A stretch of 64,000 nt of DNA from Eledone cirrhosa (taxonomy: Eukaryota). Positions within the stretch are counted from its first letter, which is position 1. Each line of letters starts with the position of its first letter. The translations under genes and the position numbers were made by a program. This document shows, piece by piece, positions 5,871-9,513 of this stretch. The stretch lies in assembly GCA_964016885.1 (NCBI GenBank), contig OZ024742.1, positions 325,376,001 to 325,440,000 of the forward strand, given 5' to 3'. The notes beneath the pieces were generated by a model, which was not told where the DNA came from, ran no database searches, and saw only the letters and a list, made by a program, of their open reading frames with translations.

Positions 5871-6470
5871 TGTTCCCATTCCAACATAAGTACAACAATG
5901 AAGGGTTCATTCTCCTGACATGGCTCTAAAATTGAGGCTTGTTTGCAAAATTGCAAACGAATCGAATGTTATTATTAATATTCGAATAACTCAGATTACA
6001 TTTATTATATATATATATATATATATATATATATATATACATATATATATATATATATATATATATATATATATATATATATATATATATATATATATAT
6101 ATATTAGGTATAGGATTATCCTAGATGTAGTAATGGTTAATTACTACACTGGATATGGGGATATGGTTGACGTACGGTGAGAGGTTACTCTACGAGTTAT
6201 GGAAGAATTGTTGAAGAAACTTAGTTCCTGATCCTTCTGTATACTGGAGTGTATATAAAGAATGTATAATAACAGGTAGACATCATAAAAAGGTAATTTA
6301 TTCCGTGTGCTTACAAATGTTTCCACGGTTGTACTACAGCCTATTTATGCTATGTGCAAATTTACAACTATTTGCAGAACTCAAATATCCATTACTACAT
6401 CTAGGATAATCCTATACCTAATAATCGCCTCCTACACAGTTGAGCAACCACACCGACATACGGCATTAAT

Positions 6471-8773
6471 ATGGAAAGGCATCATATAGGTATGTCACTT
6501 AAAAACATACCTATACCTAACAAAAGGGAATATATTCTTAATATGATTCAACTTAATAACGACTTCATTCGGCGTGTACGATGGAAGGCTTTCCATTTCG
6601 ATAAGGGACACGCCAGTCACTCGTCTGAATCATATGGTTTTAAATCATGTAAAATCCCACCCATAATCCTCCATATCGATGCTTTCGAACAAGATTTAAT
6701 GAAAACGACCATGAACATTAAGTTCAACAGACATAGAAATAATGAGCTGCAGAACAACATGAAAGCACTACTCCAAAGACTGCAAAATACCAATGGAATT
6801 GGTGAGAAAGCTGACAAGACCTCTAACGTGTATACCATGGATATCGATACGTACAATAACTTCATACGCAACGAACTACACAAAAAATATAGAAAAACAA
6901 ATGAAACTACGCTAGCAAATATTAACAACGAGGCATTCAAAGTGGTGAAGAATCTCAACATAGACGATAGAACCGAGCCAATTATACCCGCTACCCCCAC
7001 CTTTAACCCGAAGGACCATAAGGTAAATTTTGACTCTAACCCTAAGATTAGACTTATATGCCCTTCTAAATCAGGCATAGGAAAAATTAGCAAATATATA
7101 CTTGACTCAAGTGAAAAAGAAAATTGAAATTAAATTATGGGGCAACACTAGCGAAGCAATTCGCAGGTTTAATAACGTTAAGAATAACAATAAATCTAAG
7201 TTTATACAATTTGACATAGACGAATACTACTCTTCCATCTCACCAAGCACTTTACGTAAGGCCCTATCGTTTGCTAAGGTCAATTCCGACCTAACGGAGG
7301 ACGAAATTAATATTATTCTCGAGGCTAGAAAAACTATTATTAAGATTGATAACTGCTACTGGGAACGTAAGGACAGACCCACAAACTTCGACATTACCAT
7401 GGGTTCCAACGACTCAGCGGAGGTCACGGATCTTGTGGGAATTTACATAGCCCACATACTACATAGTAAATTTAGTAATTTACAGGGGGGATATACAGAG
7501 ATGACGGGCTCTTATTAGTTAATAATTTGAATAACCAAAATCTTGAAAGGCTACGGAAAAATATTAGAAAATCTTTTAGTGAACTGGGTCTAAAAATAAC
7601 ATACGAATACAATCTTAAAGTAGTAAACTTTCTGGACGTAACTCTTAATTTAAATACCGGACAGATACGACCCTTCCACAAGATGAATGAGAACCTTACG
7701 TATATTAACTTTAACTCAAACCACCCACTCTCCATGATCAAATCGGTTCCCCGGAGTATTTCTCTTAGAATCTCTCGCCTATCGTCTAACTCTGATATTT
7801 TTACTAAACACGCTGAATACTATAATAATGCATTAAGGAATGCCGACCACCGGGATACAATAGAATACATTGATAGGAATCTCCATAAGACACATAATTC
7901 TACACGAAATCAAGGAATACGTAACCGAGGGACTAAAATACAAGCGCACACACACAGTACCACCAGACATACTAATAATAGAAAATCACCACCAAATAAA
8001 TCACGTTGTAGAAAGTATATCTGGTATAATCCTATTTTGAATGCCTCGATTAGTACAAAACTATCTCTTTCATTCTTTAAGTTAATCAACAAACATTTCC
8101 CTAGTTCCCATAAATACAGCAACATTCTGAACTCTAAAGCTATTAGACTATCATACTCCACGACACCAAACCTTGAAGCATACATAAAAAAACTTAACTT
8201 AAAGCAATTAAATAACACTACAAAACAAAATATTTTAGTAACAGATGGGTAGAACGTAATATCTGCCTCCCAACCACTAAATGGGAGACGGGTATTACAC
8301 AATCCACCTGTACTGCTATCACAACCTATCCATGGTATACCCTCTACCCACAACAAAGAATGTAACTGCCATCTACCTGAAAGATGTCCATTGAAGAATG
8401 AATGCCTAAAGTCCAACATTGTTTACCAATGCACGGTTGAAACGAACGACCAGAAATGCTATTATATCGGATCTACCACCACCTCGTTTAAATCTCGCTG
8501 GTACCGTCATCGATTCTCAATCACCGTTTTGTGACCACGCTCGCCAACAAGACCTGGCAACTCCGTGAACGCAACCAAGAGTTCACCTTAAAATGGGATA
8601 TACTTTCCAGCGCAGGTGCATATCGGAGTGTATTGAAGTACTGTAGGTTATGTAACCTTGAACTATTTTACATATTAAAATCCAAAAACAAACTACTTAA
8701 CGATAGAATTGAACGATCATTATACTGCAACCACAAACTAAAAGCTAAATTATCTCACTATAAAATAACTTAA
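6471..8773 (+). pseudogene. Penelope-like RT + GIY-YIG endonuclease ORF, frameshifted
   Basis: Motifs NIPIP, ADKT, KDHKVNF..PKIRLICPSKS, FIQFDI.EYYSSI, FDITMGS.DSAE, G-YRDD (frameshifted near 7490), VNFLDVTLNL, CNC-x5-C, NIVY..YYIGST and CRLCNLE. Split over at least 4 frames, with a TAG at 8250. Confidence 0.92.
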
Positions 8774-9272
8774 CATTCGAACCCGTAACTATAACATCGC
8801 TTTCTAGCTAACCATCTTCTCTTCCCCCACATTACAAGACAATACACTGCTTATCACTATAAATGGTAACTCAGTGCAATTCGCAGATTACTACTACGAA
8901 CTCAAAGTTCACTCACCACATAGACTTCGTCTGTCCCCTCTCTATCTCTCTCTCTCTCTACATCCATTACACACTCTCTCTCTCGCCTTTGGCCTACCTC
9001 CCTCCCTCTCCACATCTATGAACCTGCCTTCTGGCGCAATAAATAATTCCGACCTTAACTATCAACGCATGTCTCCAAAAGTAACCAGTATAATAAAACC
9101 CCTACCATAACATTTTGATTAAGATATCTACAAACCACTCTCTCCTATTTCTCCAACCCCTGCATATATTTCTCTCTCTATCCCTCTCCCCTACTTTTCT
9201 CTCTTCCTTTTCTACTCTATCTTCTCCAACAACCCCACTTAAGGGTATTTACATTGTACATTTTAACCATTC

Positions 9273-9384
9273 TGCTCTGAGGATACTGTGGTCACAGCAT
9301 TGGATATTTGAGTTCTGCAAATAGTTGTAAATTTGCACATAGCATAACTAGGCTGTAGTACCACCGTGGAAACATTTGTAAGCA
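9273..9384 (+). ncRNA. Type I hammerhead candidate in Penelope copy 1 pLTR (long stem II insert)
   Basis: tgct CTGAGGA tactgtggt [~67 nt] accaccgtg GAAA catttg TA agca. AATAAA follows in the inverted copy (6296-6301). Confidence 0.72.
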
Positions 9385-9513
9385 CACACACACACACACA
9401 CACATATATATATATATATATATATATATATATATATATATATATATATATATATATATATATATATATATATATATATATATATATATATATATATATA
9501 TATATAATAATAA

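Follow-up and report, generated by a model that had tools for sequence, protein, structure and literature searches.

A probable Hydra-clade Penelope-like retroelement in Eledone cirrhosa, its inverted arm and its long hammerhead stem II

Inverted arms, tails of 30-40 nucleotides (nt) and targeting of (TA)n are already published features of Penelope-like retroelements (PLEs). Within this group, the Hydra clade is defined (PMC8557442) by RWK and DKT motifs, fingers without an insertion, a CxCX5C linker, the lack of a CCHH finger, CxxC and CxH motifs, a hammerhead ribozyme (HHR) and insertion into (TA)n. Here we describe an element of this kind, copy 1, at 6102-9387 of a 64,000-nt window of Eledone cirrhosa DNA (OZ024742.1; the window is the whole stretch analysed, and all coordinates are positions in it). 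Copy 1 is very probably a PLE of the Hydra clade, and we are just as confident that it is a dead copy of a new family in that clade. The full account that we favour, a dead Hydra-clade PLE whose inverted arm arose by priming on both strands of the target, has in our estimate a probability of roughly 0.6.

The nearest described element is Hydra-1_Obim from Octopus bimaculoides (PMC8557442), which has the same motifs, a 3' HHR, predicted also in copy 1, and a (TA)n target; copy 1 represents a separate family, with 22 of 44 N-terminal residues shared by hand count. Penelope-13_HM, also of the Hydra clade, likewise carries at its 5' end an inverted copy truncated on the 5' side (PMC8557442). Compared with Penelope of D. 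virilis and Pen2a of Adineta vaga (PMC3846280), copy 1 belongs to another clade and lacks a direct 5' pseudo-long terminal repeat (pLTR), its inverted arm corresponding to the missing pLTR plus leader; a target-site duplication is unreadable in the microsatellite. In O. vulgaris, 31 recently active Penelope-like families are reported (PMC13282606), with no mention of hammerheads in the available passages of that paper.

Coding region and clade of copy 1

We located the breaks in the open reading frame (ORF) of copy 1 (6471-8773, forward strand) against the open frame (45790-47874) of copy 2, a member of a sister family in the same window. The ORF lies in five pieces, all on the forward strand, broken by frameshifts near 7106, 7488 and 8522 and by a stop at 8250; with these four breaks read as X, it forms a single frame of 768 positions. 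Piece 1 (6471-7106) holds the N-terminus with RWK (6579) and DKT (6813) and ends in a frameshift, as does piece 2 (7102-7491; 72% identical to copy 2), which carries motifs A and B of the reverse transcriptase (RT), with MGSxDxAE at 7399. Piece 3 (7485-8249) contains YRDD (7494) and the thumb and ends at the stop (8250-8252). Piece 4 (8253-8522) contains the CxCx5C linker (8361) and the GIY-YIG core (8421) and runs to the last frameshift, and piece 5 (8522-8773) holds the remainder of the endonuclease, with CxxC (8642) and CxH (8726), and the natural stop. All parts named in the original prediction, which was made from the sequence alone, could be located: an RT with YRDD, a CxCx5C linker and, at the C terminus, GIY-YIG without a CCHH finger.

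The motifs of copy 1 are those of the Hydra clade. DKT stands in place of DKG and does so in 104 of 120 homologues; a DKG at 6600 was rejected as a chance match that is not at the motif's place. The fingers have no insertion, with 64 residues from the Phe of motif A to the Met of motif B against 65 in Hydra-1_Obim (hand count). MGSxDxAE has the form seen in published Hydra proteins, RT4(B) is divergent, and the N-terminal GxKF/Y was not seen by eye in piece 1. In alignment A1, whose consensus carries the same motifs as copy 1, C552 and C554 of the linker are invariant and C560 nearly so; the CxxC and CxH of copy 1 stand beside a conserved E and N. The C-terminal GIY-YIG matched Pfam PF01541 with E=8e-4 and 20.1 bits, under the curated cut-off of 22.6. 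We found no CxxC between GIY and YIG in copy 1, where we assume the cysteines of a CCHH finger would lie, and hence no CCHH finger. The flanks, (TA)n on the left and (CA)8(TA)n on the right, fit insertion into (TA)n, and the unit of ~3167 nt is slightly over the 'generally <3 kb' given for Hydra elements (PMC8557442). We rejected membership of Penelope/Poseidon, Neptune and Nematis, as copy 1 has DKT rather than DKG and lacks the CCHH finger (PMC8557442), and membership of Naiad/Chlamys, which requires an N-terminal endonuclease whereas the GIY-YIG of copy 1 is C-terminal.

A search with copy 2 gave 210 homologues among 8000 candidates scored, the best 120 listed being 31-38% identical. The model of the copy 2 ORF reached a predicted local distance difference test score (pLDDT) of 87.7, and its top three Foldseek matches were telomerase RTs. 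In a quick tree, copies 1 and 2 clustered with an Argonauta hians protein and homologue P0001 at an approximate likelihood ratio support (SH-aLRT) of 100, the Argonauta protein being compositionally biased; an octopod source of the element is therefore likely. Two points temper this assignment: the Foldseek E-values lie near each other (telomerase 1e-9, bacterial RTs 7e-9 to 2e-8), and the tree comprises 45 Hydra-like rows (the two copies and 43 of the 120 homologues) without an outgroup or other PLE clades. A PDB sequence search with A1 gave 0 matches, a Pfam scan of 12 homologues found no RT or GIY-YIG family, and a search with ORF piece 3 gave 3 matches among 314 candidates, none of them named. 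The Hydra-group placement first suggested for copy 1 is supported by its motifs, its likeness to published Hydra proteins and the telomerase-like fold of the copy 2 ORF model. One homologue of the PLE ORF (E 5.5e-95), P0092 from Argonauta hians, is annotated 'GATA zinc finger domain-containing protein 14-like' and is probably misnamed.

We compared 6105-9387 with four of nine listed sequencing runs, of which three are DNA or guessed to be DNA and none is recorded as RNA. The stop at 8250 is missing from all covering reads and contigs in these runs, and the 40 variants listed (a further 419 exist) are mostly sites where copy 1 departs from nearly all other copies; copy 1 has therefore decayed. 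None of the three frameshifts is among the 12 indels listed (7 more exist), and the one-base break near 7488 may be an assembly error. The label 'autonomous', given to copy 1 originally, thus applies to its family only: with three frameshifts and one stop, copy 1 itself is dead.

Ends of copy 1 and the origin of its inverted arm

Copy 1 lies between a (TA)n array on the left (6006-6104), which also borders an HHR island at 5282-6005, and (CA)8 followed by (TA)n on the right (9388-9522). Its first 290 nt (6102-6391, reverse strand) form an inverted arm that contains part of stem II, the 3' half of the HHR, AATAAA (6302-6297), the family 3' end, the leader and a tail. Read as its reverse complement, 6391-6305 agrees with 9301-9387 at 85 of 87 positions, and the arm continues via AATAAA to 6102. 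The final 35 nt of this arm, the tail (6102-6136, reverse strand), abut (TA)n and match 6389-6423 (forward strand) exactly; this second tail copy is the start of the forward arm and lies 47 nt before the first ATG at 6471. The inversion joint shows a 3-nt microhomology (6389-6391) common to both arms. The duplication and the 35-nt overlap therefore place the two arms head to head, with both 3' ends facing outward on microsatellites and the 3' end of the left arm contiguous with the 5' start of the right arm. This layout was predicted at 6103-9388 and holds with small shifts only: the 85/87 match confirms that the inverted arm starts inside the stem II insert and passes through the HHR 3' half and AATAAA, the 34 nt said to precede the ORF are 35 nt, and the contiguity of the 3' end with the element's own 5' leader recurs in related loci as the same head-to-tail unit. 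Many contigs of these loci are permuted head-to-tail units; L028:1-4970, from a metagenome contig, carries a Hydra-like element as a full dimer, head to tail.

The leader contains a hairpin (6117-6155, reverse strand) whose 3' strand is the tail and at whose loop the forward arm begins. Its energy of -14.8 kcal/mol compares with -6.0 +/- 2.1 for shuffles, none of 500 of which equalled it. In most reads of runs X7 and X8 (117/121 and 99/104), an 8-nt tandem duplication at 6151-6158 is missing. The usual 3' end of the family lies upstream of this leader, at 6252, 60 nt past the predicted HHR cut (6252-6311, reverse strand). Here 101 X8 reads join (TA)n with an agreement of 0.83, one of six loose ends listed for this run, and in alignment this position corresponds to the end of copy 2 itself (equalled by 17 of 2000 shuffles); no such join is among the six loose ends listed for X7, where 635 more exist. 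Since 6252 is the usual end, 6251-6102 represents the leader and tail of a next unit. In run X1, summed contig depth is 636-986 over the first bins of the ORF, ~40000 at the HHR and 107000 one bin past the cut, a gradient of the kind that 5' truncation usually leaves. From 12578 at 6151 it falls to 322 at 6459, which marks the tail end as a common terminus. Read ends at 6206, 6295, 6298, 6362, 8748 and 8881 (X7, X8) were rejected as termini, because all lie on AATT sites and represent library cuts. The (TA)n bias proposed for the flanks is borne out by the X8 joins and by 22 arm ends in the window, chosen by eye and not blind, of which 14 lie within 5 nt of (TA)n, 4 of other microsatellites and 4 of neither (background 2.0%); the right flank of copy 1 begins with (CA)8. 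Ten HHR hits, spread over 9 of 78 related loci, are followed by (TA)6 at 32-113 nt from the cut.

We consider it probable that a single RNA, tandem or circular, was the template of both arms, each primed by one of the two target strands. The family unit would be transcribed as such an RNA, and the GIY-YIG nuclease would nick both strands of a microsatellite. One strand, with its (TG)n end against CA-rich RNA, would start synthesis 7 nt beyond the HHR cut and copy a full unit up to the leader hairpin; the other would prime at the tail end against (TA)n and copy 290 nt into stem II, and the two complementary DNA (cDNA) ends would then join via microhomology. Because both arms cross the HHR cut site, the template would have been uncleaved or religated. 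Besides the contiguity of the arms, the proposal draws on a second joint, 6312 to 6393 (28 reads in X7, 45 in X8), whose forward arm starts within 4 nt of that of copy 1, on similar overlaps of 90 and 28 nt in islands 5282-6005 and 12989-14044, and on the published behaviour of a purified PLE protein that cuts and extends both strands, takes unprocessed RNA and initiates internally at two sites bounding the tail (Frangieh et al., 2024, PMC11167929). That element, Poseidon PAc of Anolis, resembles the proposal in its internal initiation at the pLTR-ORF junction, with the tail between the start sites, in the cutting and extension of both strands and in the use of uncleaved RNA as template; its HHR overlaps the ORF start (PMC11167929), whereas that of copy 1 lies in the 3' untranslated region (UTR), ~250 nt upstream of the next unit's ATG.

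Twin priming of L1 offers a further parallel. As reportedly set out by Ostertag and Kazazian in 2001, it yields a 5' inversion with arms contiguous on one RNA and microhomology at the joint, as in copy 1. Copy 1 differs from it in lacking a poly(A) tail, in having a GIY-YIG rather than an apurinic/apyrimidinic (AP) endonuclease and in its fixed 35-nt overlap. Among the literature matches listed for Penelope with twin priming, only a human review names Penelope.

Several observations count against priming on both strands. Initiation by the purified protein occurs without homology to the cut DNA, while the proposal invokes short homology at both ends (PMC11167929). The right end of copy 1 is 9387 rather than the usual 6252 and may reflect a later deletion into the microsatellite, and the 6312-6393 joint may be a single locus or a deletion. 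In the islands at 49.6, 51.0, 52.6 and 53.5 kb, both arms start near or upstream of an HHR-like motif without end-to-start overlap. The summed contig depth in X1 is not copy number.

The main rival, which we hold to be unlikely, is fold-back of a single antisense strand that began at the tail end and was one unit plus 35 nt long. Its 3' end would have settled on a 3-nt match within stem II and been extended over the strand's initial 290 nt, and a deletion into the microsatellite would later have removed ~200 nt from the right end. For head-to-head PLE repeats, a proposal exists that an antisense strand primes its own copying (Arkhipova et al., 2013, PMC3846280); this would explain both the 35-nt overlap and the microhomology from one start site, palindromic joints are frequent in PLEs (same source) and in the islands here (for example near 52714), and the arms differ at just 2 of 87 sites. 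The joint of copy 1, however, is not palindromic, the scheme requires the extra deletion, and both strands are extended in vitro (PMC11167929). It is quite improbable that two independent cDNAs from two RNAs were joined head to head, with an overlap that is fortuitous or due to the RT halting at the leader hairpin on both. This hairpin is indeed strong, and in the related loci L025, L030 and L042, which are short contigs, the inverted arms start within the ORF with no end-to-start contiguity seen; yet the overlap is exactly the tail, and it recurs in the second joint and in two islands. On balance, priming of both strands on one RNA remains our preferred explanation.

Sister family, small islands and other repeats

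Copy 2 (45790-49015, forward strand) is a 5'-truncated member of a sister Hydra family with an open 694-codon frame; its HHR at 48863 has an 88-nt stem II, and it ends in (TA)n. It shares 69% nucleotide identity with copy 1 over 1429 columns. Another 5'-truncated member of copy 2's family (14145-15177, reverse strand) has a 92-nt stem II, also ends in (TA)n and is 92-93% identical to the 3' end of copy 2.

Copy 1 had been thought to match the small non-coding HHR islands of the window in architecture and to identify their likely mobiliser. The likeness holds in outline only, in the head-to-head arms, tails and microsatellite flanks, and the second claim fared worse. It is rather improbable that the family of copy 1 supplied RT and nuclease in trans to these islands. 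Beyond the common layout and flanks, island 53472-53845 has the 37-nt HHR 3' half of copy 1 (0/300 shuffles), the family at 12989-14044 ends in the same 7 letters as the tail of copy 1, and non-LTR retrozymes have been proposed to be PLE-derived (bioRxiv 2026.07.22.740005). Conversely, blastn found no match between copy 1 and the islands, 24 of the 25 segments tested from them have scores that 11 to 295 of 300 shuffles reach, and 14145-15177 belongs to copy 2's family. Because the shuffle test also misses copy 2's own 3' region (189/300), it excludes close descent only and not action in trans; no cross-mobilisation between PLE types was seen in a rotifer (Arkhipova et al., 2013, PMC3846280). 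For the most part, the islands appear to stem from other PLE families, as truncated or non-coding products, and Hydra-type PLEs as a class are fair candidates for their makers, without copy 1's family being singled out. They also fit published descriptions of minimal HHRs paired on opposite strands and of non-LTR retrozymes (PMC4209133, bioRxiv 2026.07.22.740005), from which copy 1 differs as a coding element; opposite-strand HHR pairs 100-700 bp apart were previously attributed to truncated PLEs (PMC4209133).

The non-coding island 5282-6005 consists of head-to-head arms with HHRs at 5829 (forward) and 5494 (reverse), a ~37-nt left-arm tail and a 33-nt internal tandem. At 12989-14044, 15670-15960 and 50985-51357 we found a retrozyme-like family of 306-nt non-coding units with a Hydra-like HHR, tandem and inverted, with two termini ~36-39 nt apart; the 306-nt tandem at 12989-13594 looks retrozyme-like. 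Related islands at 44160-44395, 49642-49935 and 52576-52968 have an HHR-like 3' half, a possible U3-A8 core of sub-threshold score and varying inversion points; a window scan for the U3-A8 core gave no match scoring at least 10. Islands 53472-53845 and 9511-9763 are inverted as well, the latter adjoining the right (TA)n of copy 1. Other repeats include RT frames or fragments of the long interspersed nuclear element (LINE) type at 18354-20552, 12362-12913 and 26680-26844, which we take to be RTE-like, and a broken LINE-type RT at 60499-62989 (reverse strand), presumably L1/Tx1-like. A dispersed repeat of ~190 nt, resembling a short interspersed nuclear element (SINE), occurs at 16205-16416, 21393-21586, 23411-23598, 37408-37741 and 40332-40528 with 88-92% likeness.

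The hammerhead and its long stem II

The Type I hammerhead of copy 1 (9269-9387, forward strand) follows a C/T-rich 3' UTR (8774-9268, forward strand). CUGAGGA (9277-9283) and GAAA (9369-9372) form the core, the predicted cut falls after 9380, and the element ends 7 nt on, at 9387. The core and stems I and III fit a hammerhead, cleavage being a prediction; stem III has 3 bp with a 2-nt loop, for which dimeric cleavage is expected (Cervera and de la Pena, 2014, PMC4209133). Our scanner detected 11 such motifs across the window, whereas 20 block shuffles of it gave 0.05 each on average. A CUGAUGA at 47991 was rejected for want of a fitting partner.

Between the core boxes lie 85 nt in copy 1 (9284-9368), 88 in copy 2 and 92 in the 14.2-kb copy, compared with 10-29 nt in all 60 HHR hits from 49 of the 78 related loci, where the scanner permits ~130. 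Stem II of copy 1 is thus ~60-70 nt longer than in its relatives, and the '~67-nt insert' noted before the element's end was a fair description, with 85 nt spanning the core boxes. Hydra rows in supplementary file S2 of PMC8557442 have stems II of at most ~26 nt, and two spike-moss PLEs from another group reach 50-55 nt (same source). The long stem II is the unusual trait of this otherwise ordinary element. Titles and abstract openings on long hammerhead stems II or introns within them, a sample that largely leaves subscription papers uncovered, included none describing this variant. Further HHR-like motifs occur at 26996-27076, 30445-30564, 30969-31088 and 55045-55090, with stems II of 62, 43 or 97, and 27 nt; the region with the 62-nt stem II folds well (0/300 shuffles).

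The stem II inserts of copies 1 and 2 are homologous (8/2000 shuffles). An inner helix of 11 pairs shows 97% pairing and four compensatory, two-sided changes (8/500 shuffles; slid controls at most 1), in a test on three sequences that include two near twins and that also supplied the structure. Stem II of copy 1 folds scarcely better than shuffles (23/300 and 25/300 as good) and its whole HHR region no better (z 0.45), and the HHR region of copy 2 folds better than any shuffle (0/300).

We also considered that a retained spliceosomal intron accounts for the 61-68 additional nt of stem II and that its splicing gives a compact hammerhead, which we regard as very unlikely. Copy 1, copy 2 and the copy at 14.2 kb all have a GT 7 nt downstream of the first core box, and an AG that stops 17 nt short of GAAA; removing this segment leaves 24 nt in all three, inside the 10-29 nt of the relatives, and in the copy 2 family, where the splice sites look good, a perfect 9-bp hairpin. 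PLEs keep introns, and in D. virilis the HHR and the end of an intron overlap (PMC4209133). Against this, copy 1 has a poor donor and no pyrimidine tract, and GT and AG are also constrained by helix pairing and common descent. Moreover, the helix with the four changes joins 'intron' to 'exon', so the conserved form is the unspliced rod, and no 61-68-nt skip is among the joints listed in the four runs. We give equally little credence to the broader idea of an octopod sub-lineage of Hydra PLEs in which the ribozyme is switched by splicing from a long rod to a compact, active state and cleaved RNA is the template in vivo. The 6312-6393 joint suggests the latter, because its inverted arm stops at most 1 base from the HHR cut site, as may happen by run-off from a cleaved RNA.

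Stems II of 85-92 nt escape the short-spacer HHR descriptors of 7-17 nt (PMC8557442), and no hammerhead is among the 150 Rfam rows listed of 171 for the window; the PLE ribozymes of this genome may therefore be undercounted. As the genome is rich in inverted copies, their arm ends can be counted against the tail and the cut site, which bears on the origin of head-to-head repeats in PLEs and on the role of the HHR.

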